Source: an uncultured Acidobacteriota bacterium (GTDB lineage: Bacteria; Acidobacteriota; Thermoanaerobaculia; Multivoradales; UBA5704). Taken from it: DNA of 64,000 nucleotides. Shown piece after piece: positions 6,623 through 23,515 of this stretch. The stretch covers positions 258,808-322,807 of the forward strand of contig CAVWLA010000001.1 of assembly GCA_963755825.1 (NCBI GenBank). Reading direction: 5' to 3'. Positions within the stretch are counted from its first letter, which is position 1. Each line of letters starts with the position of its first letter. The translations under genes were made by a program, and so were the position numbers. The notes beneath the pieces were generated by a model. It worked only from the letters and a program-made list of their open reading frames with translations, was not told the DNA's origin and made no database searches.

Positions 6623-6997
6623 TCATCCGAGATCGTTCTTGGTGTGCTCCGGCTCCGGGGCTGCGGCTTCGCCTTCCATGGGAGGCAGGGGGATGGCGGC
6701 CAGGCGGCAGCCGCCGGCCGCGATGGCGGCGAGGACGGCGACGGTGACCGCCAGGCGGGGGCCCTGCCAGAGGCTGCCGATCCATTGGCGGATCTCGTAG
6801 GCGAAGACGTTCGCCTGGCCGCCGTACATCTGGAGCTGGCGGAGGGACTGCTTGCTGTCCTCCATGCTGCCCAGGGGATCGTCCGGCGGCGGCGGCGAGG
6901 TGCGGTAGATCACCAGGGCGGCGAGGAGGCCGGCGGCGAGGATCGCGTTGCTCAGGATGCGGAGCGTCCTGGTGCGGGCGGCTGGCGTGATGCTCAT
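6623..6997 (-). CDS. Small membrane protein, hypothetical (124 aa, one predicted TM helix)
   Basis: ATG at 6995-6997. Hydrophobic segment LRILSNAILAAGLLAALVIY. The 5' ~200 bp is duplicated at 5389-5590. Confidence 0.45.
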   Translation of the reverse strand: MSITPAARTRTLRILSNAILAAGLLAALVIYRTSPPPPDDPLGSMEDSKQSLRQLQMYGGQANVFAYEIRQWIGSLWQGPRLAVTVAVLAAIAAGGCRLAAIPLPPMEGEAAAPEPEHTKNDLG

Positions 6998-7000
6998 GGG
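6796..7000. repeat. Direct repeat copy 2 (intact) of the ~200 bp segment
   Basis: Matches 5389-5590, see copy 1. Confidence 0.65.
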
Positions 7001-7282
7001 TTGGCTCCCCTCGCCGCGCCGCCGCTCGCGAGCTGCCCGGCGATCGGCATGCGGGGGATTCTATTGGAGACGGCGTGGGAGACAGCGGGCGTAACCTGCC
7101 ATATCCTGATAGCGTCTCTGTGGGCAGGCTCCGAGGGTCCGCCCCGGAACAAACCCTCGTTCTGAGCCGTTGTTTTCCACCGGATGTACCTCGGCGCGGC
7201 GCCCGCGGTCAGTTGTGGCGCTTCCCTTGCACTGTTCGATCGGGGCGGCTGTCTCGGGCCGTCCGTTTCCGGCGAGGATTCC

Positions 7283-8632
7283 ATGGGTAAAAAGGGCTGG
7301 GTGGTGATCGCGGCGATCGTCGCGGTGGTTCTCGCTGGAGGGATCTACTTCGAGCGGCACAAGACGCCGGAGCCCAGATTCCGCACCGTCAAGGTGGAGC
7401 AGGGAGACGTGGTGGCTACCGTCACCGCCTCCGGCACGCTGTCGGCGGTCACCACGGTGCAGGTGGGCAGCCAGGTCTCGGGGATCGTCGCCAAGCTCTT
7501 CGTCGACTTCAACTCCGAGGTGAAGAAGGGGCAGCTCCTGGCCGAGCTCGACCCGACGCCGTTCCAGGCGGCGGTCGACCAGCAGCAGGCGAGCGTGCAG
7601 AAGGCCAAGGTCGACCAGGTGAGCTCGCAGATCGCCTGGGGGCGGTCGAAGAAACTCCTGGCGCAGGGCCTGATCGCGCAGTCTGACTACGACACCGCCA
7701 CGGCGACGCGCGACGGCGCCGTCGCGGCGGTCAAGGTGGCTCAGGCGTCGCTCCAGCAGGCGCTCGCCAACCTCACCTATACGAAGATCCTGTCGCCGAT
7801 CGACGGCATCGTCGTCGACCGCGAGTACAACGTCGGGCAGACGGTGGCGGCCTCGTTCCAGGCGCCGACCATCTTCACCATCGCGCAGGATCTGGCGAAG
7901 ATGCAGGTGCTGACCAACATGGACGAGGCCGACATCGGCGGCATCAAGGTCGGCCAGAGCGCCAACTTCACCGTCGACGCGTTCCCCGACCAGACCTTCC
8001 GCGGCTCCGTGTCGCAGATCCGGCTGTCGCCGCAGACGGTGCAGAACGTCGTCACCTATCCCGTCGTCATCGACGTCGCCAACGTCGACTTGAAGCTCAA
8101 GCCCGGGATGACCGCCGACGTCCAGGTGCCGGTCGACGTGCGCCACGACGTGCTGCGGGTGCCGAACGCGGCGCTGCGCTTCAAGCCCGATCCCGCCGAC
8201 CTGGTGCCGGGAGCGGTGACGACGGTGACCGGCGGCGGCGGGACGGGCAAGCCGGGCGACCAGGCGGCTCAGGGCACCCAGGCGGCTCTCGGGACCGAGA
8301 GTGGCGCCGGGGGCGCGGCGTCTGGAGCCGCCGGAGCCGCCGGAGCGACCGGACATGGGGGCCGCGGCGCCGGCGGGGCGAGCCGCAGCGGCCGCACCGG
8401 CGGCGGCTCCCGCCAGGCCATCGTCTACGTCCAGGTCGAGAACGGCAAGCTCAAGCCGGTCCAGGTGCGCACCTCGATCACCGACGGCTCGTTCACCGCG
8501 GTGACCTCGAAGGATCTCAAGGTGGACGACGAGGTGGTCGTCGGCCTCGCCACGGCCAAGGCCGGCACCTCGTCGACCTCGCGGCCGCCGACCCTCGGCG
8601 GCGGCGGACCCGGCCGCGGCGGACCGCGGTAG
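7283..8632 (+). CDS. macA: Efflux ABC transporter periplasmic adaptor subunit (HlyD/MacA family)
   Basis: ORF 7184-8632 trimmed to ATG at 7283 (MGKKGWVVIAAIVAVVLAGG membrane anchor). It has coiled-coil and beta-barrel/lipoyl motifs typical of membrane fusion proteins (TKILSPIDGIVV, ADVQVPV). Gly-rich C-terminal tail. Confidence 0.85.
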   Translation: MGKKGWVVIAAIVAVVLAGGIYFERHKTPEPRFRTVKVEQGDVVATVTASGTLSAVTTVQVGSQVSGIVAKLFVDFNSEVKKGQLLAELDPTPFQAAVDQQQASVQKAKVDQVSSQIAWGRSKKLLAQGLIAQSDYDTATATRDGAVAAVKVAQASLQQALANLTYTKILSPIDGIVVDREYNVGQTVAASFQAPTIFTIAQDLAKMQVLTNMDEADIGGIKVGQSANFTVDAFPDQTFRGSVSQIRLSPQTVQNVVTYPVVIDVANVDLKLKPGMTADVQVPVDVRHDVLRVPNAALRFKPDPADLVPGAVTTVTGGGGTGKPGDQAAQGTQAALGTESGAGGAASGAAGAAGATGHGGRGAGGASRSGRTGGGSRQAIVYVQVENGKLKPVQVRTSITDGSFTAVTSKDLKVDDEVVVGLATAKAGTSSTSRPPTLGGGGPGRGGPR

Positions 8633-8640
8633 GAGGCGCC

Positions 8641-9429
8641 ATGGCCAAGGTCATCGAGATCACCGATCTCACCCGCGTCTACAAGGTCGGCGGCTCCGAG
8701 GTGCGCGCCCTGGACGGCATCTCGCTCGCGGTCGAGAACGGTGAGTTCCTGGCCGTCATGGGCTCCTCGGGCTCCGGCAAGTCGACGCTGATGAACATCC
8801 TCGGCTGCCTCGACCGCCCGACCTCGGGGCGCTACGTCCTCGAGGGGATCGACGTCTCCTCGCTCGACCGCGACGCCCGCGCCGAGATCCGCAACGACAA
8901 GATCGGCTTCGTCTTCCAGAGCTTCAACCTGCTGGCGCGCACCTCGGCGCTGGAGAACGTCGAGCTGCCGCTCCTCTACTCGAAGAAGGCGCTGAAGATC
9001 TCGGACGCCGAGCGCGAGGCGAAGGCCCGCGCCTGCCTGGCGCGGGTGGGCCTCGCGGAGCGCTGGGACCACACCTCGGCGCAGCTCTCGGGCGGCCAGC
9101 AGCAGCGGGTGGCGATCGCCCGCAGCCTGGTCAACGATCCGGCCATCGTCCTCGCCGACGAGCCGACCGGCAACCTCGACTCGCACACCTCGGAGGAGGT
9201 CATCGCCATCTTCCAGGGCTTGAACGACGAGGGCAAGACCATCGTCCTCATCACCCACGAGCCGGACATCGCCGAGTTCGCCCAGCGCGTCGTCACCTTC
9301 CGCGACGGCAAGATGATCTCCGACGAGCGGGTCAAGAACCGCCGCCGCGCGGCGACCTCCGCTGCCGCGCCGGCGCCGGCGGCCGCCGACCCCGCCGTCG
9401 AGCCGGTCGCCTCAGGAGCCCGCCCATGA
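8641..9429 (+). CDS. macB: ABC transporter ATP-binding protein (MacB/LolD-type)
   Basis: Walker A GSSGSGKSTL, signature LSGGQQQRVAIARSL, Walker B IVLADEPTGNLD. ATG 9 nt after macA stop. Confidence 0.9.
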   Translation: MAKVIEITDLTRVYKVGGSEVRALDGISLAVENGEFLAVMGSSGSGKSTLMNILGCLDRPTSGRYVLEGIDVSSLDRDARAEIRNDKIGFVFQSFNLLARTSALENVELPLLYSKKALKISDAEREAKARACLARVGLAERWDHTSAQLSGGQQQRVAIARSLVNDPAIVLADEPTGNLDSHTSEEVIAIFQGLNDEGKTIVLITHEPDIAEFAQRVVTFRDGKMISDERVKNRRRAATSAAAPAPAAADPAVEPVASGARP

Positions 9430-10652
9430 CCAAGTCGCAGAACATCCTCAAGGTCGCCTTCGGCGCCCTCGGGCGCAACAAGCTGCGCTCGCTGCTGACC
9501 ACCCTCGGCATCATCATCGGCGTCGCCTGCGTGGTGGCGACGATCGGCATCGGCGACGGCGCGCGCATCCAGGCGCAGGACCAGCTGCGCTCGCTGGGCA
9601 CCAACTTCCTGATGATCTTCCCCGGCGCCATCACCTCCTCCGGGGCGCGCAGCGGCTTCGGCGGCAGCTCCAAGCTCTCCGAGGACGACGTCGACGCCAT
9701 CCGCCGCGAGGTGCCCGCCGCCGCCTACGTCTCGGCCTCCAACCGCACCGTGGCGCAGGTCATCTACGGCAACCAGAACTGGTCGACGACGATCCAGGGG
9801 GCGCAGGTCGACTGGCCGCTCATCCGCTCCTGGAACATCGGCGTCGGCCAGTTCTTCTCCGACCAGGACGACCGCGCCGCGGCGAAGGTCTGCGTCCTCG
9901 GCACGACGGTCGCCGAGAACCTCTTCGGCAGCGAGGACCCGATCGGCAAGACCATCCGCATCAAGAACCTGCCGTTCCGGGTGGCGGGCGTGCTCGAGGC
10001 CAAGGGCGGCTCGACCAACGGCGCCGACCAGGACGACACCGTCATCGCGCCCTACGAGACGGTGCGCAAGAAGCTCCTCGGCACCACCGCGGTCGGCACC
10101 GTCCTGGTCTCGGCGACCTCGAACGACAAGGTCGACGAGGCGCAGAACGAGATCACCGCGCTCCTCGAGCAGCGCCATCGCATCAACCGCGCCGCCGGGC
10201 AGGAGGACGACTTCGCCATCCGCTCGCAGACGGAGATGCTGGAGCAGGCGGCGCAGCAGTCGCAGACCATGAGCTACCTGCTGTGGTCGATCGCCGGCGT
10301 CTCTCTCCTCGTCGGCGGCATCGGCATCATGAACATCATGCTGGTGTCGGTCACCGAGCGCACGCGGGAGATCGGCATCCGCATGGCGATCGGCGCCAAG
10401 GGCGGCGACATCCGCGCCCAGTTCCTCGTCGAGGCGGTGGTGCTGGCGATCTCCGGCGGCGCCATCGGCATCGGCGTCGGGATCGGCATCCAGCGCGGCG
10501 TCGCCCGCTTCGCCGGCTGGCCGGTCGCCGTGCAGGCGAGCGCCATGGGGCTCGCCTTCGCCTTCTCGGCGCTCATCGGCATCACCTTCGGTTTCTACCC
10601 GGCGCTCAAGGCGTCACAGCTCGATCCCATCGAAGCGCTGCGCTACGAGTAG
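9426..10652 (+). CDS. ABC transporter permease, FtsX/MacB-like (408 aa)
   Basis: N-terminal TM helix, MacB-like periplasmic domain, and a C-terminal FtsX domain with 3 TM helices ([12 protein letters not shown] motif). Start overlaps upstream stop (ATGA). Confidence 0.9.
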
Positions 10653-10659
10653 CGGACCG

Positions 10660-12719
10660 ATGTCCGACACCTCGTCAGCCGCCGCCGGGCACGACTTCAT
10701 CCGCGACCTGGTCGCCCGCGACCGCGCCGCCGGCAAGCACGGCGGGAGAGTGGTCACCCGCTTTCCGCCGGAGCCTAACGGCTACCTCCACATCGGCCAC
10801 GCCAAGTCGATCTGCCTCAACTTCGGCCTCGCCCTGGAGAACGCCGGCAGCTGCCACCTCCGCCTCGACGACACCAACCCGGAGACCGAGGATGCGGAGT
10901 ACGTCGACGCCATCCAGCGCGACGTGCGCTGGCTGGGCTTCGACTGGGGGAGAGCTTCTTCCACGCCGCGGACTACTTCGAGCGGCTCTACGACTTCGCC
11001 GTCGAGCTCATCCGCCGCGGCAAGGCCTACGTCTGCACCCTCTCCGAGGACGAGATCCGCGCCTACCGCGGCACCGTCACCGAGCCGGGCCGCAACAGCC
11101 CCGGCCGCGACCGCTCCGTCGAGGAGAACCTCGACCTCTTCGCCCGCATGCGGGCGGGGGAGCTCGCCGACGGCGCCGCCGTGCTGCGCGCCAGGATCGA
11201 CATGGCCGCCGCCAACATGAAGCTGCGCGACCCGCTCCTCTACCGCATCAAGCGCGCCACCCACTACCACCGCGGCGACGCCTGGTGCATCTACCCGATG
11301 TACGACTTCGCCCATCCGCTCTCCGACGCCATCGAGGGCATCACCCACTCCCTCTGCACGCTCGAGTTCGAGAACAACCGCGACATCTACGACTGGCTGG
11401 TCGACACCCTGCCCTTCGCCGACCCGCCGCGGCAGATCGAGTTCGCCCGCCTCAACCTCACCTACACCCTGATGAGCAAGCGCAAGCTCCTCGAGCTCGT
11501 CGAGCGCCGGCTGGTGGCGGGCTGGGACGACCCGCGCCTGCCGACCCTCGCCGGCCTGCGCCGGCGCGGCTTCACCCCGGCGGCGCTGCGCGACTTCTGC
11601 GAGCGGATCGGCGTCGCCAAGGCGAACAGCACGGTGGACGTGGCTCTTCTCGAGGCCTGCCAGCGCGAGGATCTCAACCCCCTGGTGCCGCGCCTCCTCT
11701 GCGTGCTGCGGCCGCTCAAGCTGGTGATCGAGAACTATCCCGAGGACGAGGTCGAGGAGCTCGACGCGCCGCTCTACCCGCACGACGTGCCGAAGGAGGG
11801 GGAGAGGAGGATCCCCTTCTCGCGCGTCCTCTACATCGAGCGCGACGACTTCGCCGAGCTGCCGCCGAAGGGTTTTCACCGCCTCGCCCCGGGCCGCGAG
11901 GTGCGCCTGCGCTACGCCTACCTCGTCCGCTGCACGGGCGTCGTCCGCGATGCCGCGAGCGGCGAGGTCGTCGAGGTGCGCTGCACCTACGACCCGACCA
12001 CCCGCGGCGGCACCGCGCCGGACGGCCGCAAGGTGCCGGGCACCCTGCACTGGGTGTCCGCGGCGCAGTCGGTGACGGTCGAGGTGCGGCTCTACGACCG
12101 GCTCTTCCGCGTCGAGCGGCCGGATCTCGAGGAGGGCGGCTTCGAGGCCTGTCTCAATCCGCGCTCGCTGGAGATCCTCACGGGTAGCCGGCTCGAGCCG
12201 GCGGCGCTCGACGCCGGGCTCGGCGAGCGGCTGCAGTTCGAGCGCCAGGGGTACTTCTACCGCGACCCCGTCGATTCGACCCCCGAGCGCCCGGTGTTCA
12301 ACCGCATCGTGCCGCTCCGCGACTCGTGGGCGCTGGAGGCGGCGGCAGGGCAAAAGGCGGCCGAGGCGTCGCGGCCTGCGGCGCCGGATCGACCGACCCC
12401 GCAAAAGCCTGCGAAGGAGGCCGAGCCGAAGGTCGCCGAGCCGCTTTCGGAGGACGAGATCGCCGCGCTCGACGCCATGCGCCCGACGGTGGGCCCGCTC
12501 GTCGCGGGCGTCCTCGCCGACCATCCCGCCGAGGTCGAGAAGCTCCGCGGCGGCAAGGCCGGGCTGCTCGGCTTCCTCGTCGCGCAGGTGATGAAGCGGG
12601 TGGCGGCGGGTGGCGGCAAGGCCAATCCGAAGCTGGTCAACGCACTCCTCGGCGAAGCGCTCGGCTCGCCTGCCGCGCCGACCGCTGCGCCCGCCGGCGA
12701 TCCATCCGCGGCCGGCTAG
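10660..12719 (+). CDS. glnS: Glutaminyl-tRNA synthetase with appended C-terminal YqeY/GatB-like domain; apparent frameshift in a G5 homopolymer at 10946-10950
   Basis: ORF 10660-11220 matches the GlnRS N-terminus ([20 protein letters not shown] motif). ORF 11148-12719 in the -1 frame continues GlnRS ([32 protein letters not shown] motif). Translating across 10942-10960 with one extra G restores a continuous GlnRS ([20 protein letters not shown]). The last ~120 aa ([25 protein letters not shown]) resemble the GatB/YqeY tail. Confidence 0.85.
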
Positions 12720-12738
12720 CCCCGCGGCACCGCGTCTC

Positions 12739-14682
12739 TCAGCCGCGCCAGTCGAGGATTCTGTCGACCGTCTGCTGCGTCAGCGCGTGGTAGCCGGGGC
12801 GCGCCTGGCCGTAGATGCGGAGCGCCCGCTCGGTCCCCGCCGGGGTCTTCGCCAGCTCGCTGTAGAGCGGCTTGACGAGCTTGCGCCGGCCGACCGCGGT
12901 CAGGAACCGCTCGAGCGTCGGATAGGCCGGCTCGTAGCGGCTCTGGATCGAGCGCTCGAGCCAGACGGAGAGGATCTCGTCGTTGCCGCTGGCGGTGAAG
13001 TGGAAGGCGGCGTCGAGGGCGGCCATCCGCTCGGCGGGCACCGGGCGCTGGAGCTTGCCGAGGAAGTGGAGCCACTCCTGGGCCGTCCAGCCCTGCGTCG
13101 CCAGCTGCTCCGGCGCCGTGCCGGCGGCGAGCGCGGCGACCTGCAGGTCGACCTTGGCGAAGGCGGCGGAGATCACCCGCGGCGCGTTCGCCGGCAGCCC
13201 CGGCCCATGGATCCAGGCCCTGGCGTCGATCCGCGCCGCCACCTGCGGATCGTTCAGGAGATGCTGGTCGAGGTAGGACTCGAAGCCCGCGGTGTCCATC
13301 GAGCGGAAGGCGTGGCCGTCGAACCAGCCGCGGAGGAAGGCGTCGAGGCGGTCGCGCCCCGCCGCCTGCTCGAGGGCGAAGAGGAAGAGCGCCCCCTTCT
13401 CGTAGGCGACGTCGTTGACCGCGTCGTCGGGATCGCGGCCCGCCATGTCGAGATGGAGCCGGGTGTCGGGGCTGTCCGGCCCCAGCTCCTGGAGGGTCGC
13501 GTCGAGGCTCTCGCGCCCCAGCGCCGCCTCCATCTCCTCGAGCGGACGGCCGTAGAGCGCCTCGACGATGCGGCGCTCGAAGTAGACGGTGAAGCCCTCG
13601 TTCAGCCAGAAGTCGTTCCAGCTCGCGTTGGTCACCAGGTTGCCCGACCAGGAGTGCGCCAGCTCGTGGGCGACGAGGGCGACGAGCGAGCGGTCGCCGG
13701 CGAGGATGGTCGGCGTGGCGAAGGTGAGGCGCGGATTCTCCATGCCGCCGAACGGATAGCTCGCCGGCAGGATGAGCAGGTCGTAGCGGCCCCAGCGGTA
13801 GGGACCGTAGAGCTTCTCGGCGGCGGCGATCATCCGCGGCGTGTCGGCGAGCTCCCAGGCGGCGCGCTCGATGACCGCCGGCTGCGCGTAGACGCCGCTC
13901 CGCTCGGCGCCGCCGGCGGCCGGGAACGCCCTGAACTCGAGGTCGCCGACGGCCAGCGCCAGCAGGTACGAGGGGATCGGCTGCGGCATGCGGAACTCGT
14001 AGCGGCCGTCGGCGTGCTTCGTCTGCGGGTTCTCGGCGCTCATCACGGCGAGGAGGTCGGGCGGCACGGTGACCGTCGCCTCGTAGGTCATCCGCACGCT
14101 CGGCGTGTCCTGGCAGGGGATCCAGGTGCGCGCCAGGATCGCCTCCGACTGGCTGTAGAGGAACGGCTTGGCGCCGCCGGCCTGCTCCGGGGTGAGCCAC
14201 TGCAGCGCCGCCGACTCGGGCCGCGTCGCGTAGTCGACGTTCACCCATTGCGTCCGCGGCGTGATCTCGACCTCGAGGTCGCGGCCGAGGAAGTGGACCG
14301 GCTCGCCGAGATGGAAGGAGGCTCTGGTCTTGCCGTCGTCGAGCGTCACGGCGCGGATGTCGAGGTCGCGGGTGTCGAGGTGGAGGCGGAGGCCCTCGTG
14401 CGGCGCCAGGTGCAGGCTGGCGCGGCCGCTGAGCGTGCGGCTGGCGAAATCGACCCGCAGGGTGAGCTTCAGGTGGTCGACCGACGCCTCGGCCGGCCGC
14501 GCGAACGAGTGCGGATCGCCTGCCGGCTGGCCGGCCGCCGGGCTCGCGGCCTGCGCGCCGTCCGCCGGCGAGGGCTGAACGACCTCGGGCCGGGGCGGCC
14601 GGCCGGAGGTGGCGCAGGCGACGAGGAGCGGCAGGGCGGCGAGCAGGAGTGTCGAGACGAGCGGCAGGTCGAACGGCTTCAT
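12739..14682 (-). CDS. M1-family zinc aminopeptidase, lipoprotein (leukotriene A4 hydrolase-like)
   Basis: 647 aa with lipoprotein signal (LLVACAT). GAMEN-like GGMENP and zinc motif HELAHSWSGN...E. The overlapping 673 aa ORF in another frame is Pro/Arg-rich GC artefact. Confidence 0.8.
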   Translation of the reverse strand: MKPFDLPLVSTLLLAALPLLVACATSGRPPRPEVVQPSPADGAQAASPAAGQPAGDPHSFARPAEASVDHLKLTLRVDFASRTLSGRASLHLAPHEGLRLHLDTRDLDIRAVTLDDGKTRASFHLGEPVHFLGRDLEVEITPRTQWVNVDYATRPESAALQWLTPEQAGGAKPFLYSQSEAILARTWIPCQDTPSVRMTYEATVTVPPDLLAVMSAENPQTKHADGRYEFRMPQPIPSYLLALAVGDLEFRAFPAAGGAERSGVYAQPAVIERAAWELADTPRMIAAAEKLYGPYRWGRYDLLILPASYPFGGMENPRLTFATPTILAGDRSLVALVAHELAHSWSGNLVTNASWNDFWLNEGFTVYFERRIVEALYGRPLEEMEAALGRESLDATLQELGPDSPDTRLHLDMAGRDPDDAVNDVAYEKGALFLFALEQAAGRDRLDAFLRGWFDGHAFRSMDTAGFESYLDQHLLNDPQVAARIDARAWIHGPGLPANAPRVISAAFAKVDLQVAALAAGTAPEQLATQGWTAQEWLHFLGKLQRPVPAERMAALDAAFHFTASGNDEILSVWLERSIQSRYEPAYPTLERFLTAVGRRKLVKPLYSELAKTPAGTERALRIYGQARPGYHALTQQTVDRILDWRG

Positions 14683-15683
14683 CGATTGGGGGCTCCTGGG
14701 GTCGAGCGGTTCGGGTCGCCGGCAGCGCCGGCGTCACCGGCCTCGTCGGCTGCCATGGCGGCTGCCACGGCGCCGCCCGGCCAGAGCGCCGGCTCGCCGC
14801 GGTCGAGCGCGGCGTGCAGGGCCTGCACGATGGCGAAGACCTCGCGGCGGCTGATCTTGGCGCCGGGGCCGGCGGCGGCGACGCGATCGAGGGTGGCGTG
14901 GGCGAGATGGACGGGGAGGGCGTTGAAGGCGACGAGGCCGCGCTCGGCGCCGGCGCGCTGGAGATCGAGGAGGTAGCGCTCTGCCTCGGCGAGGTCGCGG
15001 CGCGCCAGCGCCATGACCGCCGCCCGCTCGACCGCCGGCGGCAGGTAGCGCCTGCCCTCCTTGGCGTCGGCGTCCGAGTCCTTGAGGATGTTGACCAGCT
15101 GCAGCCCCTCGCCGAAGATCGGCGCCCGCGCGCGGAGCGCCGCGGCGAACGGCGCCAGCTCCGGCCGCCCGAGGAGGAAGAGGTCGGTCAGCAGCTCGCC
15201 GACGATGCCGGCGACGACGTAGCAGTAGGCGCGCAGGTCGGCGAGGTCGGCGAGCTCGAGGCGGCCGTCGTCGCCTGCGCGCTCGACGTAGCGCTCCATC
15301 CCGGCGATGGTCCGCCGCGTGTGGTCGCGGATGAGCGCGACCGCCGCGGGGCGCAGAGCGAAGAAGCTGTCGAGGACGAAGGGCACCTCGGCGAGCAGGC
15401 TGCGATAGCCCGGCTGGGCGCAGGGGACCGCGCCGCTCCAGGCGCCCGCCGCCACCGCAATCTCTCCGGCATCCGCCGCCGGGCCGTCGAGCATGGCGTC
15501 GAAGCGGTCGAGCGCCGCGATCTTCTCGGCGCGCTGCCAGCCGGCGGCGTCCTCGAAGGTGTCGGCGATGCGGAAGAGCAGGTAGGCGAGCGTCACCTCG
15601 CTCCGCGTCGGCTCGGGGAGGAGCGGGATGGAGAGCGCGAAGGTGCGGCTCGAATGGAGCAGGAGCTGTTCCAGATCGGCCAT
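14679..15683 (-). CDS. Squalene/phytoene synthase family protein (trans-isoprenyl diphosphate synthase head-to-head)
   Basis: ORF 14679-16817 trimmed to ATG 15681-15683 (MADLEQLLLHSSRTFALSIPLL). SQS_PSY signatures (YCYVVAGIVGELLT, DxxED-like FRIADTFED, QLVNILKD). Last gene of the isoprenoid operon. Confidence 0.75.
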   Translation of the reverse strand: MADLEQLLLHSSRTFALSIPLLPEPTRSEVTLAYLLFRIADTFEDAAGWQRAEKIAALDRFDAMLDGPAADAGEIAVAAGAWSGAVPCAQPGYRSLLAEVPFVLDSFFALRPAAVALIRDHTRRTIAGMERYVERAGDDGRLELADLADLRAYCYVVAGIVGELLTDLFLLGRPELAPFAAALRARAPIFGEGLQLVNILKDSDADAKEGRRYLPPAVERAAVMALARRDLAEAERYLLDLQRAGAERGLVAFNALPVHLAHATLDRVAAAGPGAKISRREVFAIVQALHAALDRGEPALWPGGAVAAAMAADEAGDAGAAGDPNRSTPGAPNR

Positions 15684-15775
15684 GGCTCGCAGCGAAGGAT
15701 ACCAGCTCGGCCGCGCTGGACGCGGCGAAGGGAGGGCCGGAGAGCAGGGCGGAGAGAGTACGTTGCGGCGCCCCG

Positions 15776-16651
15776 TCAGGAGGCGCGGCTGACGACGACG
15801 GTGCCGGGCACCTCGTCGCCGGCGAGGGCGCTCTCCAGCAGCCCGGGCACCTGTCCATCGGCGATCAGCGAGGGGACACCGAGGTCGGCGAGGGCGAGCG
15901 CCGTCTCGACGCGGTGGCGCATGCCGCCGGTGACGTCGGTGCCGCGCGCGGCGCCGATCGCGGTGCCGGCGCTGTGCAGGTCGCTCCGCGTCAGGCGGGC
16001 GAGGGTGGAGCCGTCGCGGTCGAAGACGCCGGCGGTCTCGCCCAGCCAGATGGCGCGGCGGACGGTGATGCCGCGCTCGGGGAGGCGCTGGGCGAGGAGA
16101 GCGAAGGCGCTCTCCGTCGAGCAGATGGAGACGCCGCGGTCGCGGTCCATCACCACGTCGCCGTAGACGACCGGCAGGAGCCCGCGCGCCAGCGCCAGGA
16201 GGAGCGGCTCGTCGGCGAACGTCGCCGGCGAGCCCGCCGCCGCGGTCATCGCGCTCGACGGGCTGATCGAGAAGGGGAGGGCGCCCGCCGCGGCGAGCGC
16301 CGCCACCACCTGCCAATGGAGCGCCGCGGCGCGCTCCTGGGTGATCGAGATGCCTTCGAGCTGAGCGCGCGACGCAGGGGCGCCGGTGCCGCCGGCGAGG
16401 CCGCTCGTCAGCCCGCTGGTCAGCCGATACTTCGCGGCGGCGACATGGCCGAACGAGCCGCTGCCGTGGCCGACGATCACCCGCGCGCCGCGCGCGGTGG
16501 AGGCCGCGGCGCCGGCGGCGATCTCCTCGGCCAGCCGCTCGATCACCTCGGGGCGCGCCGTCTCCGGCTGCTCCTTGTCGGTGATCAGGCTGCCGCCGAG
16601 CTTGACGAGGATGACGTCCAGGGCTTCGCTCCGGTCTCGCGGGCTCAGAAT
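15776..16651 (-). CDS. ipk: Isopentenyl phosphate kinase (amino-acid-kinase fold); start codon uncertain, no in-frame ATG/GTG/TTG
   Basis: C-terminal ~290 aa of ORF 15776-18841: LDVILVKLGGSLITDK, VIVGHGSGSFGH, then nucleotide-binding Gly-rich segments typical of IPK and fosfomycin-kinase-like AAK enzymes. Abuts the decarboxylase stop (16660). Only CTG/ATT codons are available near the expected start. Confidence 0.7.
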   Translation of the reverse strand: MLSPRDRSEALDVILVKLGGSLITDKEQPETARPEVIERLAEEIAAGAAASTARGARVIVGHGSGSFGHVAAAKYRLTSGLTSGLAGGTGAPASRAQLEGISITQERAAALHWQVVAALAAAGALPFSISPSSAMTAAAGSPATFADEPLLLALARGLLPVVYGDVVMDRDRGVSICSTESAFALLAQRLPERGITVRRAIWLGETAGVFDRDGSTLARLTRSDLHSAGTAIGAARGTDVTGGMRHRVETALALADLGVPSLIADGQVPGLLESALAGDEVPGTVVVSRAS

Positions 16652-16659
16652 CGCGGGGC

Positions 16660-17667
16660 TCAGAAGAGGTGGTCGGAGTCGGTCTCCGGCCCGGCGCCGA
16701 CGCCGTCGCGGATGACGAAGCCGACGACCGGCAGGCTGTCGAGCCGCGCCGCGACGTCGTCGACCGATTCGGCCTCGCAGATGACGTGGACATTGGCGCC
16801 GGCGTCCATCGTCGCATAGGCCTGCAGGCCCTCCTGGCGCAGCTCGCGCACGGCGCGCAGGACGCCGACCGTCCCCGGGCTCCAGTAGAAGACCGGCGGC
16901 TGCGACGACATGGCGATCAGGTGGAGGTCGATCGCCTCCTCTTCGAGCACGGGGCCGAGGAGCGCGATGTCGCGCGCCGCGATCGCCCGCCGCACCTGCT
17001 CGAGGCGCGCCGGGAGGAGCTCCTGGCGTTGCGGGTAGTACGGGCTGGTGATCGCCCGCCGATGCCCTTCGAGCGAGGAGACGACCTTGGGGCCGATCTC
17101 GACGACGGCGATGACGTCGCAGAGGTCCCAGTGCTCGGCGCCGGCGATCTGCACCGCGCCGGGGTCGTCGGCCTTCTTCTCCTTCGGGCCCGGCCACTCG
17201 ACGAAGCCGCCGAAGACCGAGCGCGCCGCCGACCCCGAGCCGCTGGCGCGGGCGAGGCGCGACAGCTCGGTCGGCGGCGCCCCCTTGCCGAGGGCGCCCG
17301 CCGCGGCGAGCGTCAGGGCGGCGAAGCCCGAGGCCGAGGAGGCGAGACCGCCGGCGGTGGGGAAGCCGTTCTTGGTCGCCACCCGGAAGGCCGCGCGGCT
17401 CCCCGCCCAGGCGCGGATGTTGTCGAGCTGGCGGCGCATGCGCTCCTGGAAGTCGTGCGCCGGGGTGCGGAAGCCGCCGTCGGGCTCGGAGAGCCAGACC
17501 TCGTCCTTCGTCCCCTCGGGCAGCAGCTCCACCGTGCAGCGGGTGACGCAGCTCTCCAGGGTCATCGAGATCGACGGGTTCTGCGGGATGGCGCGCTCGA
17601 GATCGCGGGCGCCCCAGTACTTGATGAAGGCGATGTTCGCCGGGGCTTGGACGGTCGTCTTGCTCAT
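16660..17667 (-). CDS. mvaD: GHMP-family mevalonate (di)phosphate decarboxylase (MVD or phosphomevalonate decarboxylase)
   Basis: 335 aa, MSKTTVQAPANIAFIKYWG N-terminus and GLASSASGFAAL GHMP motif. ATGA overlap with the mevalonate kinase stop at 17664-17667. Confidence 0.85.
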   Translation of the reverse strand: MSKTTVQAPANIAFIKYWGARDLERAIPQNPSISMTLESCVTRCTVELLPEGTKDEVWLSEPDGGFRTPAHDFQERMRRQLDNIRAWAGSRAAFRVATKNGFPTAGGLASSASGFAALTLAAAGALGKGAPPTELSRLARASGSGSAARSVFGGFVEWPGPKEKKADDPGAVQIAGAEHWDLCDVIAVVEIGPKVVSSLEGHRRAITSPYYPQRQELLPARLEQVRRAIAARDIALLGPVLEEEAIDLHLIAMSSQPPVFYWSPGTVGVLRAVRELRQEGLQAYATMDAGANVHVICEAESVDDVAARLDSLPVVGFVIRDGVGAGPETDSDHLF

Positions 17668-18900
17668 CGAGGGGTCTCCCGCCGCAGGCCGGCGGCGCCG
17701 AATCGAACCGGGCGAACCGGCAGGGTCGCGAGGCAGGGCAGGCTCTCGCGGTGGCCGCCCGCGGCGCCGGAATCGACGCTCGAGTCAGCGCTGGAACCGG
17801 CGCTGGAATCGGCGCTGGAATCGGCGCTGGAATCGGCGCTGGAATCGGGATGATAAACCAGGAGCGCGCCGGCACCGCTCCCGGAGAGCGCGCCGGCGCC
17901 GGAGATCTTGGCGGCGCCGCCGGCGGCCTCGATCTGTCGCACGATCCGCGCCACCGGCGCCGGCACCACGCCGAGCGCTTCGAGGCACTCCTCGAACTCG
18001 GCGAGCAGGTCGCGGATCGGCGCCGCGGTCGCGGCGCCGATCTCGAGGTCGGCGCGCAGCGCGACGGTCGCCGCCGCCATGCGGTCGAGGAGGCGCTCGG
18101 TGCCGGCGCGGTCGCGAGCCAGGCGCTCGCGGACCGCCGCCACCACGGCGCCGGTCGCCTCGGCCGGCGCGCCGGTGTCGTAGACGGCGAGGCGGTCGAG
18201 GGCGGTCGAGCGCAGCGCGATCGGCTCGACGGCGAGGCCGCCGCGGTCGCCCGGCGCCGGGGCGGTCCGTGCCGCCCACAGCAGGCCGCCGCGGAGCACC
18301 GTCGCCGCGTCGACCCCCGAGGGAGTGCCGTGCTGGCGGCGCTCGACCTCGTGCACCAGCCGCTCGACGGTCGCCAGGTCGGGCGCCGCGCCGCGCAGCG
18401 CCAGATAGCCCGCGACGACCGCCGCCGCCGCCGCCGCCGAGCTGCCGAAGCCGGAGCCCGGCGGCAGGTCGGAGTCGATGCGGAGCCGCAGCCCCGGCGG
18501 ATCGCCGGCGCCGGGAGGATCATCAGCGGAGCCCTCGCCGGTCTGCATGAGGTGCGCCGCCGCCTCGCCGAGCGAGACCTTGACGAGGTGCACCGGGTCT
18601 TCGCCGCGGAGCTGGCGGAAGGACGGCGCGCCGGAGCTCGCGGCATAGCCTGCCCAACGCTCGCGCGCCTGCCGCGCGTAGGCGAGGATCTCCTCCCAGC
18701 TGGTCTCCGCCGCGCAGCCGAGATCGGGGAGCTCGAGGCGGACGGATGGCGGCTCGCCGGGCGATGCGAGCGGGAAGAAGCGGGCGGTGAGGCGGAGATC
18801 GATCGCCGCGACCAGCGCCGGCCGGCCGTAGACGACGGCATGCTCGCCCATCAGGATGAGCTTGCCGGGGGTGGAGACGGCGAGCGGCCCGGAGCTCCGC
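17664..18900 (-). CDS. mvk: Mevalonate kinase; true start upstream of annotated ATG (conserved PGKLIL-GEHAVVYG motif spans the ATG), approximate 5' end
   Basis: GHMP kinase motifs PPGSGFGSSAA and KISGAGA. Translating upstream of the first ATG (18849-18851) in frame gives ...LAVSTPGKLIL-M-GEHAVVYG, the canonical MVK N-terminal strand, so translation must begin before 18851. No ATG/GTG/TTG is present between there and the hmgA stop (18958). Confidence 0.85.
17765..17848. repeat. 12 bp tandem repeat (cgctggaatcgg x ~6) inside the mvk coding region, encoding (SSAD)n
   Basis: Direct reading of 17789-17848 shows 5 perfect 12-mers plus degenerate flanking units. Translated on the minus strand as DSSADSSADSSADSSAGSSADSSVDSG, inserted after the MVK Gly-rich loop. 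Confidence 0.7.
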
Positions 18901-18957
18901 GCCGGACCGCCGGTCGCGGCGTCGGAGCCGGGGAGAAGGCCGTCGAGCAGGGGAGCC

Positions 18958-20253
18958 CTAGGTGGGGATCGGAGCCGCGGGAGGCACCGCGCCGCGCCCC
19001 AGCTTCTCGTGCGACCGCGCCAGGTCGCGGGAGGTGAGCGCCGACATCAGCGACAGCTCGCCGGCGAGCACCGCGCCGCCGACGATCTCCGCCAGGCGCA
19101 GCACCGCGTCGCCGCGGCGGAGCGGCTCGGGCGAGACGCCGAGGACGGTCAGCGCCTCGCGCTGGGTGTCGAGCGCCGTACCGCCGCCGATCGCCCCCAA
19201 CGGGCAGTCGGGGAGGAAGACCGAGGCGAAGACGGCGCCGTTGTCGCGCGGCTCGATGCAGGTCACCCCGAGCGATCCCTCGACCACCTGCGCCGGGTCC
19301 TGCCCGGTGGCGATGAAGAGGGCGGCGAGGACGTTGGCGTAGTGGGCGTTGAAGCCGAGCGAGCCGGCGGCGATCGAGCCGAGGAGGTTCTTCCGGTACT
19401 GCACCTCGACGAGCTCCTTGGCGTTGGTCTTGAGGATGGTCTCCAAGATGTCGGCCTCGACCACCACCTCGGCGTAGATGCGCTTGCCGCGCCCCTCGTG
19501 GAAGTTGACCGCCGCCGGCTTCTTGTCGGCGCAGTAGTTGCCCGAGAGCGAGATGCAGGCGACGCCGGTCGACGGCTCAATGAGGTCGCTGATGACGCGG
19601 TCGCAGGCGATGGTCGCCATGTTCATCCCCATGGCGTCGCCGGAGTCGAATCGGAAGCGCAGGAAGACCGTGGTGCCGAAGGCGAAGGGTCGCACGTCGA
19701 GGAGCTTCAGGTAGCCGCTCGTCGACTCGGCGATGCGCCGGATGTCGGCATCGTGATCCTCGATCCAGCGCAGGAACTGCTGCGTCTGCACGATGCCGGA
19801 GGTGCGGAAGACCGGCGCCCGCGTCATCCCCACGTCCTCGACGCGGACGGTCGCGCCGCCGGCGGCGGAGATCGCCGTGCAGCCGCGGTTGGTGCTGGCG
19901 ACGAGCGCCGCCTCGGTGGTGGCGAGCGGCAGGTAGACGTCGCCCTGCACGTGGTTGCCGCGCAGGGTGAGCGGGCCGGCGACGCCCATCGGGATCTGCG
20001 CGATGCCGATGAAGTTCTCGCAGTTGCGCGCCGCGGCGCGGTTGACGTCGAGCGAATGCTGGGCGATGTGATGGAGGGGAGCGCGCGTCAGCTCCTCGAG
20101 CGCCTGGCGGCGGATCTCGGCCGCCATCTGCGGCGGCAGATCCTTCGGCAGCTGATGGAAATGGATCTCACGGGCGACCAGCGAGCGCACCAGCTCATCG
20201 CGGGTGGAAGGGCGTCTCAAGGTGGATGCGAGTGGTCTCATCGTCTCGTTCAT
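18958..20253 (-). CDS. hmgA: HMG-CoA reductase, class I (NADPH-dependent, archaeal/eukaryotic type)
   Basis: 431 aa with ENFIGIAQIPMGVAGPL, DAMGMNM and GTxGG motifs characteristic of class I HMGR. Confidence 0.9.
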   Translation of the reverse strand: MNETMRPLASTLRRPSTRDELVRSLVAREIHFHQLPKDLPPQMAAEIRRQALEELTRAPLHHIAQHSLDVNRAAARNCENFIGIAQIPMGVAGPLTLRGNHVQGDVYLPLATTEAALVASTNRGCTAISAAGGATVRVEDVGMTRAPVFRTSGIVQTQQFLRWIEDHDADIRRIAESTSGYLKLLDVRPFAFGTTVFLRFRFDSGDAMGMNMATIACDRVISDLIEPSTGVACISLSGNYCADKKPAAVNFHEGRGKRIYAEVVVEADILETILKTNAKELVEVQYRKNLLGSIAAGSLGFNAHYANVLAALFIATGQDPAQVVEGSLGVTCIEPRDNGAVFASVFLPDCPLGAIGGGTALDTQREALTVLGVSPEPLRRGDAVLRLAEIVGGAVLAGELSLMSALTSRDLARSHEKLGRGAVPPAAPIPT

Positions 20254-21347
20254 GTCCCCGACCTTCTATGGAGCTCGGCTGCTCGCAGCTCCGGGATCGT
20301 TCGTGCACCGATGCAAAACATCGAGATCTTGAGCTCCTGGACGATGCGCCGGATGCGCTCGGCGACGCGCTCGGGCGACTGCGTCGCCGCCTCCAGGAAC
20401 TGGTACGCCATGCCCGCCAGGTCGGCCCCGAGGGCGAGCGCCTTGGCCACGTCGATGCCGCTGCGCAGCCCGCCGCTGCCGATCACCGTCAGCCCGCCGA
20501 CGCCCTTCAATTCGCGGATGGCGACCGGCGTCGGGATGCCCCAACCGGCGAAGAGCTCGCCCAGCGCCACGTCGCCGGCGCGCGCCGCCTCGATCCGCGC
20601 CCAGCTGGTGCCGCCCGCCCCGGCGGTGTCGACGATGCGGATGCCGTGCTCGGCGAGCCGCCGGGCGACCTTCCCCGAGATGCCGGCGCCGACCTCCTTG
20701 GCGATCACCGGCACGGCGAGCTCGCGCGCCACCTCGCCCATCTTCGCCAGCAGTCCCGAGAAGTTGCGATCTCCCTCGGGCTGGATCGCCTCCTGCAGCG
20801 GGTTCAAGTGGAGGACGAGAGCATCCGCGGCGATCATCTCCACCGCCCGCCGGCACTCGTGAATACCCATGCCGTAGTTGAGCTGCACCGCCCCCAGATT
20901 GGCGAGCAGCGGCACCGACGGAGCGGCGTTCCGAACGCGAAAAGTATCAGCTTTTGTAGGATCTTCCAACGCCTTGCGCTGCGAGCCGACGCCCACCGCG
21001 ACACCCTCCGCCTCGGCGCCGGCGGCGAGGTTGCGGTTGATGTCGCCGGCGATCGCGGTGCCGCCGGTCATGCACGAGACGAGGAGCGGCGCGGCGAGGC
21101 GCTTGCCGAGGAACTCGACCGAGGTGTCGATCTCGTCGAAGTCGATCTCGGGGAGCGCGCTGTACTCGAAGCTCCAGTCGGCGAAGTAGCTGGCCTCCGC
21201 CTGCATGCGCGGATCGAGCGCCAGCCGGATGTGCTCGGCCTTGCGGTCGCGCTCCGCCGCCGGTTCGGCCGGCCGCTCCGCTCGGCCGTCGGCGGTGTTG
21301 GAGGCGCTGGCCGCCGTCAGCTCGCCGGCCCCTGTCCGGGCGCTCAC
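20250..21347 (-). CDS. fni: Type 2 isopentenyl-diphosphate isomerase (FMN-dependent IDI-2)
   Basis: C-terminal part of ORF 20250-22406: RKAEHIRLAL, VSCMTGG, VGSQR, VIAKEVGAG, DTAGAGGTSWA. Start assigned to GTG at 21345-21347, overlapping the upstream stop (GTGA), with GGGAG 8 nt upstream. Confidence 0.8.
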   Translation of the reverse strand: MSARTGAGELTAASASNTADGRAERPAEPAAERDRKAEHIRLALDPRMQAEASYFADWSFEYSALPEIDFDEIDTSVEFLGKRLAAPLLVSCMTGGTAIAGDINRNLAAGAEAEGVAVGVGSQRKALEDPTKADTFRVRNAAPSVPLLANLGAVQLNYGMGIHECRRAVEMIAADALVLHLNPLQEAIQPEGDRNFSGLLAKMGEVARELAVPVIAKEVGAGISGKVARRLAEHGIRIVDTAGAGGTSWARIEAARAGDVALGELFAGWGIPTPVAIRELKGVGGLTVIGSGGLRSGIDVAKALALGADLAGMAYQFLEAATQSPERVAERIRRIVQELKISMFCIGARTIPELRAAELHRRSGT

Positions 21348-22522
21348 TCCTCGCGCTCCCGCAGGTAGTCGAGGAGGCCGCTGAAGAAGGCGTGGCCGGA
21401 GCCGCCGAGGGAGAGCTCGGCGAGCGCGTCGGCGGCGATCGCCAGCCGCGCCTCGATCATCTCGCCGACGCGGGCGCGGGCGCCGGTGGCCTCGAGGATG
21501 CGCTGCACCCGCGCCACCTCCGCCGGCGCCAGCTCGGGGTTGCCGAAGGCGGCGTCGATCGCCTGGCGGTCGGCCGGCGAGGCGGCGGCGAGCGCGTGGT
21601 GGATCAGGAAGGTGAACTTCCCCTCGGTCAGGTCGGCGCCCACCGGCTTGCCGACCGTCTCGGCGTCGCCGAACATGCCGAGGAGATCGTCCTGGAGCTG
21701 GAAGGCCTCGCCGATGGCGCCGCCGTAGCGGGTGAGCACGGCGCGCCTCTCGGCGGTGGCCCCGGCGAGAATGGCGCCGAGCTCGATCGGCCGCTCGCAG
21801 GTGTAACGCCCCGACTTCAGCCGCAGCACCGAGAGCAGCTCCTCGGCGCCGGCCTGCTCGGCGGTGCCGCCGCGCAGCGCCACGAGGAGCTCGAGATACT
21901 GGCCGCCGATGACCTCCTGCGACATCGCCGAGAACGAGCGCGCCAGCTCCGCGGCCCGCCGGCGGTCGTCGGCCGTGGCGCCGCCGACCTGCACCAGCGC
22001 GGAGGTGAAGAGCTCGACCGCCCAGGTATGGGCGAGATCGCCGAGGAGGATGCCGACCGAGGCGCCGAAGTCGCGGGCGTCGCCGCGCCAGCGGTGCGCC
22101 AGGTGCGCCTCGCGGAAGCGCACGTGCGCCGCCGGCTGGCCGCGCCGCACCTCGGCGTGATCCATGATGTCGTCGTGGATCAGCAGGTAGGTGTGGAGGA
22201 GCTCGGTGGCGAGGGCGAGCGGCAGCGCCGCGAAGTCGTCGCGCCCGCCGCAGGCGTGGTAGGTGTAAAAGACGAGGGCCGGCCGCAGGCGCTTGCCGCC
22301 CTGGCGGGTGAGCGCCGCGACGCCGTCGATCAGCTCGAGCGTCGCCGCCGCCGCGGACGCACCGGCCGCGTCCGCCGCGGCCTGGCGCCGCTTGCCGTCG
22401 ATCCACTCGGCGAGCGAGCGATCGACGGTGGCGCGGAAATCGGCGATCAGCGCGGCGAAGCTCTCCGCCGCGCGGCCGGCGGCCGGAGCGGGGGTGCTGG
22501 TGGCGGCGGTGGATCGGGTCAT
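21344..22522 (-). CDS. idsA: Polyprenyl diphosphate synthase (geranylgeranyl/farnesyl diphosphate synthase family)
   Basis: ORF 21344-23593 trimmed to ATG 22520-22522 (MTRSTAATST). First and second Asp-rich motifs LLIHDDIMD and FQLQDDLLG. First gene of the operon. Confidence 0.85.
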   Translation of the reverse strand: MTRSTAATSTPAPAAGRAAESFAALIADFRATVDRSLAEWIDGKRRQAAADAAGASAAAATLELIDGVAALTRQGGKRLRPALVFYTYHACGGRDDFAALPLALATELLHTYLLIHDDIMDHAEVRRGQPAAHVRFREAHLAHRWRGDARDFGASVGILLGDLAHTWAVELFTSALVQVGGATADDRRRAAELARSFSAMSQEVIGGQYLELLVALRGGTAEQAGAEELLSVLRLKSGRYTCERPIELGAILAGATAERRAVLTRYGGAIGEAFQLQDDLLGMFGDAETVGKPVGADLTEGKFTFLIHHALAAASPADRQAIDAAFGNPELAPAEVARVQRILEATGARARVGEMIEARLAIAADALAELSLGGSGHAFFSGLLDYLREREE

Positions 22523-22675
22523 GACGGGGGCTCGAGAGCGCACGCCGTGCGCCCCTGCCGCGCGAAGTTTACCGGAATTCCTCCAGGGGCGGAGGCGGGC
22601 GCCGGACCGTGAGACCGCCCGGCCGCCTGGGCTATGCTGCCGCCCGTCCAGCCCCCCATCCATGAGGAGGAGCGC

Positions 22676-23515
22676 ATGGCCATCGCGATCTACCAGGTGG
22701 ACGCCTTCACCGATCGCCCCTTCGCCGGCAACCCCGCCGGCGTCTGCCCGCTGCCGGCGTTTCCCGCCGCCGATTGGATGCGCGCGGTGGCGGCGGAAAT
22801 GAACCTCGCCGAGACGGCGTTCGTCGTCCGCCACGAGAGCCCCGCCGGCGGCGGGGTGGAGCTCGACCTGCGCTGGTTCACGCCGACGATCGAGGTGAAG
22901 CTCTGCGGCCACGCGACGCTCGCCGCGGCGCATCTCCTCTGGGAGATCGGCGCCGTGCCGGCGGGGGAGGGGATCACCTTCCACACGCTCTCCGGACCGC
23001 TCGGCGCGGTGCCGGCCGGCGACTGGATCGAGCTCGACTTCCCCGCCGAGCCGCCGGCGCCGCTCGCCACGCCGCCGGACGGCCTCGCCGCCATGCTCGG
23101 CGCCACGCCGCTCTGGGTGGGAGCGAATCGCTTCGACCTGGTCGTCGAGGTGACGGCGGAGGAGGTGGTGCGCGATCTGGCGCCCGACATCCGGCGCCTC
23201 AAGGCTCTGCCGTATCGCGGCGTTCAGGTGACCGCGGCCGCGGCTCCGGGTTCTTTGGCGGACGGCTACGATTTCGTCTCGCGTTTCTTCGCCCCGGCCG
23301 CCGGAGTCGACGAGGACCCGGTCACCGGCTCCGCTCACTGCTGCCTGGGACCCTTCTGGAGCGGCAGGCTGGGGAGGAAGGCGCTCGTCGGCCGCCAGCT
23401 CTCGGCGCGCGGCGGAACGGTGCGGGTGGAGACGCTGGGCGAGCGGGTGAGCCTCGGTGGGCAGGCGGTGACGGTCATCCGCGGCGAGCTGGTGGGGAGC
23501 GCGACGACGTTCTAG
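22676..23515 (+). CDS. PhzF-family phenazine-biosynthesis-like isomerase
   Basis: MAIAIYQVDAFTDRPFAGNPAGVC N-terminus with GAGGAGG RBS. Two-domain DAP-epimerase-like fold motifs (GHATLAAAH, GSAHCCLGPFW). Confidence 0.75.
   Translation: MAIAIYQVDAFTDRPFAGNPAGVCPLPAFPAADWMRAVAAEMNLAETAFVVRHESPAGGGVELDLRWFTPTIEVKLCGHATLAAAHLLWEIGAVPAGEGITFHTLSGPLGAVPAGDWIELDFPAEPPAPLATPPDGLAAMLGATPLWVGANRFDLVVEVTAEEVVRDLAPDIRRLKALPYRGVQVTAAAAPGSLADGYDFVSRFFAPAAGVDEDPVTGSAHCCLGPFWSGRLGRKALVGRQLSARGGTVRVETLGERVSLGGQAVTVIRGELVGSATTF

Follow-up and report, generated by a model that had tools for sequence, protein, structure and literature searches.

An alternative mevalonate (MVA) route to isopentenyl diphosphate (IPP) has been described for haloarchaea (Haloferax volcanii MvaD; VanNice et al., 2014) and for Chloroflexota (Roseiflexus castenholzii, Dellas et al., 2013; Anaerolinea thermophila, PDB 6n0x). 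In this route, a phosphomevalonate decarboxylase (MPD, also called PMD) acts on mevalonate 5-phosphate, and the resulting isopentenyl phosphate is phosphorylated by an isopentenyl phosphate kinase (IPK). The classical pathway has a phosphomevalonate kinase (PMK) and a diphosphomevalonate decarboxylase (MDD, also called DMD or MVD). The bacterial occurrence of the alternative route is considered to be restricted to Chloroflexota (Zhu et al., 2024, PMC11052028). We have analyzed a 64-kb stretch of DNA from an uncultured Acidobacteriota bacterium (Thermoanaerobaculia, Multivoradales, UBA5704; assembly GCA_963755825.1, contig CAVWLA010000001.1, positions 258,808 to 322,807), hereafter called the window. 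We consider it likely that an operon on its minus strand encodes the lower half of an MPD/IPK-type ("haloarchaea-type", alternative MVA pathway I) mevalonate route.

Cultured Thermoanaerobaculum aquaticum has the genes of the methylerythritol phosphate (MEP) pathway. In the genome of acidobacterium Mor1 (SD22), no MEP genes were found by Sinninghe Damste et al. (2017, PMC5462960), who reported "most genes" of the MVA pathway for it. For this pathway, Table S1 of that paper is limited to a gene for IDI-2, hmgcR, mvK, and mvD; PMK is not listed. A homologue of squalene synthase is encoded in the same genome. The mvD product is called a diphosphate decarboxylase there, and neither IPK nor an alternative route is mentioned. 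Because its gene list is devoid of PMK, we count Mor1 as support for the alternative route, a likeness drawn from the published list only, Mor1 not being among the 80 loci which are compared below. In the searchable literature, which is incomplete, no paper was found which assigns the route to Acidobacteriota (including Thermoanaerobaculia) or to Gemmatimonadota.

Because the G+C content of about 72% inflates the number of spurious open reading frames (ORFs), genes were called by codon usage and then checked against Pfam and NCBIfam, which gave 47 called genes in the window. Seven of these follow one another in the same direction on the minus strand, at 14679-22522 (Table 1). They code, in the order of transcription, for a polyprenyl diphosphate synthase, a type 2 isopentenyl-diphosphate isomerase (IDI-2), an HMG-CoA reductase (HMGR), a mevalonate kinase (MVK), a GHMP-family decarboxylase, an IPK, and an enzyme of the squalene/phytoene synthase (SQS/PSY) family. 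Codon usage is gene-like along the whole operon. These identities and positions had been proposed in an earlier note on this DNA and are borne out by the Pfam and NCBIfam matches. The same note had described the seven genes as translationally coupled, which holds for three of the six junctions: the GTGA at 21344-21347 combines the TGA stop of the polyprenyl synthase gene with the GTG of the IDI-2 gene, the ATGA at 20250-20253 joins IDI-2 and HMGR, and the ATGA at 17664-17667 comprises the MVK stop and the decarboxylase ATG, each overlap being present as listed there. At the remaining three, the genes are separated from each other (HMGR/MVK; decarboxylase/IPK, by about 38 nt; IPK/SQS, by 92 nt). 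To call the operon "complete" was an overstatement, as HMG-CoA synthase and thiolase were found neither in the operon nor elsewhere in the window (Pfam on the called genes; for HMG-CoA synthase also tblastn). The tblastn search, with the HMG-CoA synthase of a Serratia contig (locus L058, see below) as query, had no match in the window and one weak match in one related locus.

In the proposed route, HMG-CoA from enzymes encoded elsewhere would be converted to mevalonate by the class I reductase, and MVK would phosphorylate mevalonate to mevalonate 5-phosphate. The single GHMP decarboxylase would phosphorylate the 3-hydroxyl group of mevalonate 5-phosphate and decarboxylate it to isopentenyl phosphate, which IPK would convert to IPP. 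IDI-2 would equilibrate IPP with dimethylallyl diphosphate, the polyprenyl synthase would build farnesyl diphosphate (FPP) or geranylgeranyl diphosphate (GGPP), and the SQS-like enzyme would probably join two prenyl diphosphates head to head. The argument for this route is based on the missing Lys21 of the decarboxylase, its coupling to IPK, and the missing PMK; phylogeny is not a basis for it.

Residues of the decarboxylase are given in the numbering of Staphylococcus epidermidis MDD, which was fixed by the S192A and D283A mutant chains of that enzyme. According to alignments to 6n0x and 5v2l, the window protein keeps the motifs AGGLASSAS, GSGSAARS, VSSLEGH, and TMDAG, and all motifs which hold the catalytic residues Ser107, Arg144, Ser192, and Asp283 are kept. 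It has Ala at the position of Lys21 and His at the position of Met196, the MDDs from Enterococcus faecalis and S. epidermidis having Lys21 and Met196. Lys21 is among the residues which hold the terminal phosphate of mevalonate diphosphate, and it is a conserved residue of the MDDs from bacteria, Sulfolobales, and eukaryotes, while position 21 is Leu, Met, or Tyr in the monophosphate-acting MPDs from Chloroflexi and haloarchaea (Dellas et al., 2013, PMC3857490, Table 4). Similarly, PMD-like enzymes are without the conserved DMD lysine and have a conserved PMD histidine (Zhu et al., 2024, PMC11052028). The same two sites were engineered in PDB 6n0z, a variant of A. thermophila MPD which differs from 6n0x solely by Asn to Lys and His to Met, the latter site being four residues after Ser192 (sites according to the PDB sequences and to Zhu et al., 2024). 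Across the decarboxylases of loci L001-L059, residue 21 is never Lys and residue 196 is always His. We infer from these residues that the GHMP decarboxylase is a phosphomevalonate (mevalonate 5-phosphate) decarboxylase.

The IPK is, judged by its score and its motifs, a bona fide member of the family. Its top PDB matches are archaeal IPKs (3ll9 at 3.4e-29), and in the alignment to 3ll9 the motifs KLGGS, TDK, GSGSFGH, PVVYGDV, and DVTGG are present. The His of GSFGH does not vary among IPKs (Dellas et al., 2013, PMC3857490); the mapping of the motifs to the M. jannaschii numbering of Table 2 in that paper was made in this analysis. When species-representative genomes were scanned with the decarboxylase, 80 loci were obtained. 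Of the 52 loci which were informative (Acidobacteriota, Gemmatimonadota, and others), 51 have an IPK gene directly 3' of the decarboxylase gene and in the same orientation, as have all five loci from gammaproteobacterial metagenome-assembled genomes (MAGs). It is found there in none of the 13 informative Chloroflexota loci, where the decarboxylase gene stands alone.

For PMK, the MVK and decarboxylase from the window were compared by phmmer to all ORFs with 90 aa or more from the related loci and from the window. A second search was made by tblastn with both GHMP kinases of locus L068, from a Gottesmanbacteria MAG of the candidate phyla radiation (CPR). No PMK-like second GHMP kinase was found in the window (Pfam on the 47 called genes, phmmer, and tblastn), nor was there any within 10 kb of the decarboxylase gene in 58 related loci. 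Both searches returned exactly one kinase site per locus except in L068, where two adjacent GHMP kinase genes precede a gene for a decarboxylase with Lys21 and His196 (8047-10975). We regard L068 as a positive control, both for the detection of PMK and for the residue rule. PMK would, by extension, be absent also from the rest of the genome.

These results bear on the rival explanation that the pathway is the classical one, with a PMK encoded elsewhere, a true diphosphomevalonate decarboxylase, and an IPK which only salvages isopentenyl phosphate, as in plants. The decarboxylase does pass the generic "diphosphomevalonate decarboxylase" model TIGR01240, public pipelines give this name to its relatives, and some organisms have an IPK in addition to a complete classical pathway (Dellas et al., 2013, PMC3857490). 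On the other hand, neither the window protein nor any of those from L001-L059 has the lysine which contacts the beta-phosphate, the MVK gene overlaps the decarboxylase gene by 4 nt with IPK in the next slot, and the only locus with a second GHMP kinase beside the decarboxylase, L068 from the CPR, also has Lys21. Bacterial classical clusters (Firmicutes, Streptomyces) usually keep PMK beside MVK and MDD, which also counts against this explanation. With no second GHMP kinase nearby and Ala at position 21, we consider the classical pathway to be quite improbable for this locus. Further routes were rejected. For the Thermoplasma-type route, the scores were 25 bits to the mevalonate 3-kinase (M3K) model NF040848 and 40 bits to the bisphosphomevalonate decarboxylase model NF040847, the cut-offs being 440 and 560, respectively. 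For the archaeal (anhydromevalonate) route, neither an aconitase-type dehydratase (AcnX) nor UbiD-type decarboxylase domains were found in the window.

Several points weigh against the assignment of the operon to the MPD/IPK-type route. In MPDs, a second phosphate would collide with Arg27 (Dellas et al., 2013, PMC3857490, Table 4), which is present in A. thermophila MPD; the window protein has Ala at position 27 and Arg at position 26. Overall similarity does not separate MPD from MDD. A. thermophila MPD 6n0x is the top PDB match of the window decarboxylase (1.5e-71, about 44% identity, 245 bits), but the E. faecalis MDD, to which the window protein is 37% identical, itself scores 231 bits to the A. 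thermophila enzyme, and the argument that the best hit is an MPD was therefore dropped as a main one. A neighbor-joining tree with one MDD as outgroup gave no useful split of MPD from MDD, and the haloarchaeal PMD model NF040704 is matched at 140 bits, with a cut-off of 475. His196 alone is not diagnostic, because the CPR enzyme from L068 has it together with Lys21. In L080, from a Nevskiaceae MAG, a gene for a Lys21 decarboxylase is followed directly by IPK and IDI-2 (9968-11790), an exception to the simple rule which pairs Lys21 with PMK. The absence of PMK is known for 64 kb of this genome and for the 10 kb on either side in related loci, not genome-wide, a point which favors the classical pathway. 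Finally, MVK and IPK are without canonical start codons, so that their expression is assumed.

The shifted Arg is also relevant to another explanation, namely that the decarboxylase has dual specificity, accepting mevalonate 5-phosphate as well as the 5-diphosphate, with the order of the steps depending on which other enzymes the organism has. Additional PMD activity has been stated for a DMD homologue from Chloroflexota, and the pattern with no Lys but with His has been treated as possibly intermediate (Zhu et al., 2024, PMC11052028). In the window protein, Ser139, Ser141, and Ser192 are kept and MDD-like, and the Arg near position 27 is out of register. Such an enzyme would, however, have no source of the diphosphate without a PMK, none having been found nearby, and with R. 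castenholzii MPD no conversion of the diphosphate could be detected (Dellas et al., 2013, PMC3857490). We consider dual specificity to be unlikely. The MPD/IPK-type route thus remains our preferred reading. It had been proposed in the earlier note together with a single GHMP decarboxylase, an IPK of the amino-acid-kinase fold, and the lack of PMK in the operon, and the active site had been named there as a check. All of this agrees with our results: one decarboxylase with its catalytic residues kept, a genuine IPK which passes the curated cut-off, no additional GHMP kinase in the operon, the window, or the related flanks, and active-site residues (Ala21, His196) which are not MVD-type.

The missing start codons concern both kinases. 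In the IPK frame, none of the 141 codons which precede KLGGS is ATG, GTG, or TTG. The probable start is a CTG at 16621-16619, 7 nt after a GGAG; at this position, ATG or GTG is found in most relatives. The same CTG and GGAG are present in a JGI metagenome contig (P0001/L081) which was found by protein search, an exact match to the window decarboxylase being absent from the assembly index. This contig has a decarboxylase with 89% identity and agrees with the window in gene order and flanking genes. The IPKs from L004 and L033 are also without a canonical start. For MVK, all 11 PDB matches are mevalonate kinases (rat MVK at 1.5e-17) and none is a PMK. The PDB alignment begins at PLAVSTPGKLILMGEH, upstream of the first ATG (18851), as is the conserved N-terminal motif PGKLILMGEH. 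Between this motif and the HMGR stop there is no ATG, GTG, or TTG; a CTG is found at 18950. In L081, the stretch matching window positions 18851-18957 has a TTG. It might be argued that the cluster is decaying or unexpressed and the pathway non-functional, as canonical start codons are missing upstream of essential N-terminal motifs of both enzymes and as the gene caller returned just a 126-aa IPK fragment for L081, a close relative. This is contradicted by frames which are open and conserved over the full length of both genes, by the CTG with a well-spaced GGAG at the place of the start codon of relatives and its recurrence in L081, and by the gene-like codon usage throughout. We regard decay as highly improbable. 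A further peculiarity of the window MVK is a 12-nt tandem repeat which encodes a (DSSA)n insertion near the C-terminus (Table 1) and which is absent from the MVKs of L081, L001, L009, and other relatives.

Table 1. Features of the isoprenoid operon and its surroundings in the window.
Feature	Coordinates	Strand	Details
Divergent intergenic region, presumed promoter	22523..22633		111 nt, between operon and PhzF-family gene
PhzF-family gene	22634-23515	+	divergent neighbor of the operon
Short-chain trans-polyprenyl diphosphate synthase, first gene	21344..22522	-	392 aa; PF00348, 187 bits; ATG at 22522
Type 2 (FMN) isopentenyl-diphosphate isomerase (IDI-2)	20250..21347	-	TIGR02151, 391 bits (cut-off 281)
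Class I (NADPH) HMG-CoA reductase	18958..20253	-	431 aa; TIGR00533, 463 bits (cut-off 442); PF00368, 393 bits
Mevalonate kinase (MVK)	17664..18950 (5' end uncertain)	-	TIGR00549, 142 bits, E 2.6e-41, below cut-off (163)
12-nt tandem repeat, 3' part of MVK	17762..17848	-	7.2 copies, 85% matches, TRF score 132
GHMP-family decarboxylase	16660..17667	-	335 aa; TIGR01240, 233 bits (cut-off 171)
Isopentenyl phosphate kinase (IPK), amino-acid-kinase fold	15776..16621	-	NF040647, 147 bits (cut-off 120)
Divergent squalene/phytoene-synthase-family enzyme	14679..15683	-	334 aa; PF00494, 118 bits
M1 aminopeptidase / leukotriene-A4-hydrolase-like	12739..14682	-	PF01433, PF09127, PF17900; ATGA-coupled to SQS-like gene

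Among the other enzymes of the operon, the polyprenyl synthase has its top NCBIfam matches to synthases of the FPP/GGPP type, all of them below the equivalog cut-offs. The exact start of IDI-2 is uncertain, because homology begins only at residue 35; in L081, this region was called with the same overlapping genes. With the class II model TIGR00532, the HMGR scores only 35 bits. By its scores, the SQS-like protein clearly belongs to PF00494 but is very divergent: 76 bits to squalene synthase (TIGR01559, cut-off 287), 53 bits to HpnD, and 43 bits to HpnC. Its top PDB matches are squalene synthases of the eukaryote type at 1e-8 only. It carries both Asp-rich motifs, the first being DTFED and the other DSDAD, and its gene is kept at the same position in most related loci. 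We consider it plausible, on weak support, that this gene links the operon to the synthesis of squalene or hopanoids, and a triterpenoid product would be a reasonable guess, nothing more. The enzyme could represent a new subfamily of head-to-head prenyl synthases.

In four Gemmatimonadota operons (L029, L034, L035, L036), the IPK and SQS-like genes are separated by about 3.7 kb. L035, the sole one of these loci which was scanned, codes there (11942-14704) for an MMPL/RND transporter with similarity to sterol-sensing domains. This domain pattern resembles that of the hopanoid transporter HpnN, and it hints at triterpenoid export.

The earlier left boundary of the unit, at 14679, has to be moved. 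The seven genes are placed as described, but an ATGA at 14679-14682 combines the stop codon of the SQS-like gene with the start codon of an eighth co-directional gene, coding for an M1 aminopeptidase, and because of this coupling the unit extends to 12739. About 20 related loci, almost all of them from Thermoanaerobaculia/Acidobacteriota MAGs, also have an M1 aminopeptidase gene 3' of the SQS-like gene, a few with other genes in between. The window gene is probably co-transcribed with the operon and has no evident role in isoprenoid synthesis. The operon promoter is presumed to be located in the intergenic region upstream of the polyprenyl synthase gene (Table 1), where it is placed by inference only, as a promoter scan revealed no sigma-70-like site near the operon. 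No terminator marks the operon end; terminator-like matches fall inside genes or outside the operon.

Rfam and tRNA scans of the window had no matches and, with the Rfam scan being empty, taxonomy could not be based on rRNA. The 24 loci closest to the window have decarboxylases with 67-75% identity, and all are from Thermoanaerobaculia or Acidobacteriota MAGs, in accordance with the Acidobacteriota-like lineage which had been suspected from the sequence. Taken together with the protein search, the nearest relatives have 70-89% identity and belong to Thermoanaerobaculia (Acidobacteriota) MAGs. The order synthase, IDI-2, HMGR, MVK, decarboxylase, IPK, and SQS recurs in Acidobacteriota and Gemmatimonadota loci, and parts of it occur in one Schekmanbacteria and one Salinibacteraceae MAG, the operon being kept across dozens of MAGs from several phyla. 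It is conceivable, and we suggest it tentatively, that the MPD/IPK operon with its class I reductase and IDI-2 is the standard and perhaps the only isoprenoid route of much of the uncultured Acidobacteriota (Thermoanaerobaculia, Multivoradales, and some Holophagales), and also of some Gemmatimonadota and other MAGs.

A different arrangement is seen in L058, a contig from Serratia quinivorans. Genes for a LysR regulator, HMG-CoA synthase, a class I HMGR, MVK, and a decarboxylase with Ile21 and His196 are clustered at 6087-11002. Neither IPK nor PMK was found within 10 kb of this cluster which, as annotated, would end at isopentenyl phosphate.

If the operon works as proposed, the restriction of the bacterial route to Chloroflexi is too narrow. 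The "archaeal-type" route would then be widespread in bacteria and not an oddity of the Chloroflexi, and scenarios for the origin and the inter-domain transfer of PMD, DMD, PMK, and IPK would need to include these bacterial sequences, the bacterial operons being a candidate source or sink of the haloarchaeal PMD. Because annotation pipelines label the decarboxylase as "diphosphomevalonate decarboxylase", the pathway of these abundant soil bacteria would be reconstructed as classical but incomplete. As a gene set for the alternative route which is compact, high in GC, and ready-made, the operon could also be of use in metabolic engineering.

Two other regions of the window were noted. On the minus strand, 49987-52815 codes for a 942-aa protein with SIR2_2, AAA_16, and TPR domains in a region with a lower G+C of 0.66-0.68, which looks like a STAND-type anti-phage defense gene. 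Three consecutive plus-strand genes at 45726-49392 code for a small zf-UBP protein, a histidine kinase which binds cNMP, and a fusion of a response-regulator receiver with a pyridine-nucleotide-disulphide oxidoreductase. A gene for a Rieske-plus-reductase fusion on the minus strand (43995-45605) adjoins them, which makes for an unusual redox signaling neighborhood.

In comparison with known systems, the operon shares MVK, a single decarboxylase, and IPK with the Chloroflexota route, as described for R. castenholzii MPD and IPK (Dellas et al., 2013) and for A. thermophila MPD (6n0x). Chloroflexota MPDs are, like the window enzyme, annotated as MDD, they are without the beta-phosphate lysine, and there is no obvious PMK. 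However, the Chloroflexota genes are scattered (see also Hoshino & Gaucher, 2018), whereas those in the window form one operon. The Chloroflexi reductase was grouped with class II (Hoshino & Gaucher, 2018), whereas the window HMGR belongs to class I. Position 21 is Leu or Asn in Chloroflexota MPDs and Ala in the window protein, in which Arg27 is shifted by one residue. The hosts also differ, being Chloroflexota for the known bacterial route and Acidobacteriota here.

The haloarchaeal PMD/IPK system (H. volcanii MvaD; VanNice et al., 2014) has the same order of reactions as proposed for the window and also uses IDI-2. Its host is archaeal, whereas that of the operon is bacterial, and the window decarboxylase is not an orthologue of haloarchaeal MvaD at the equivalog level (140 vs. 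475 bits). Classical bacterial MVA clusters are likewise clustered with IDI-2 and HMGR, but they have a PMK, in the stead of which the window has an IPK of the amino-acid-kinase fold. Two more differences from the classical clusters are a decarboxylase without Lys21 and Met196 and the lack of an HMG-CoA synthase gene in the cluster. While the lineage and the operon form are unrecorded in the searchable literature, the pathway itself is known, and we regard the operon as a taxonomic extension of the Chloroflexi/haloarchaeal route.

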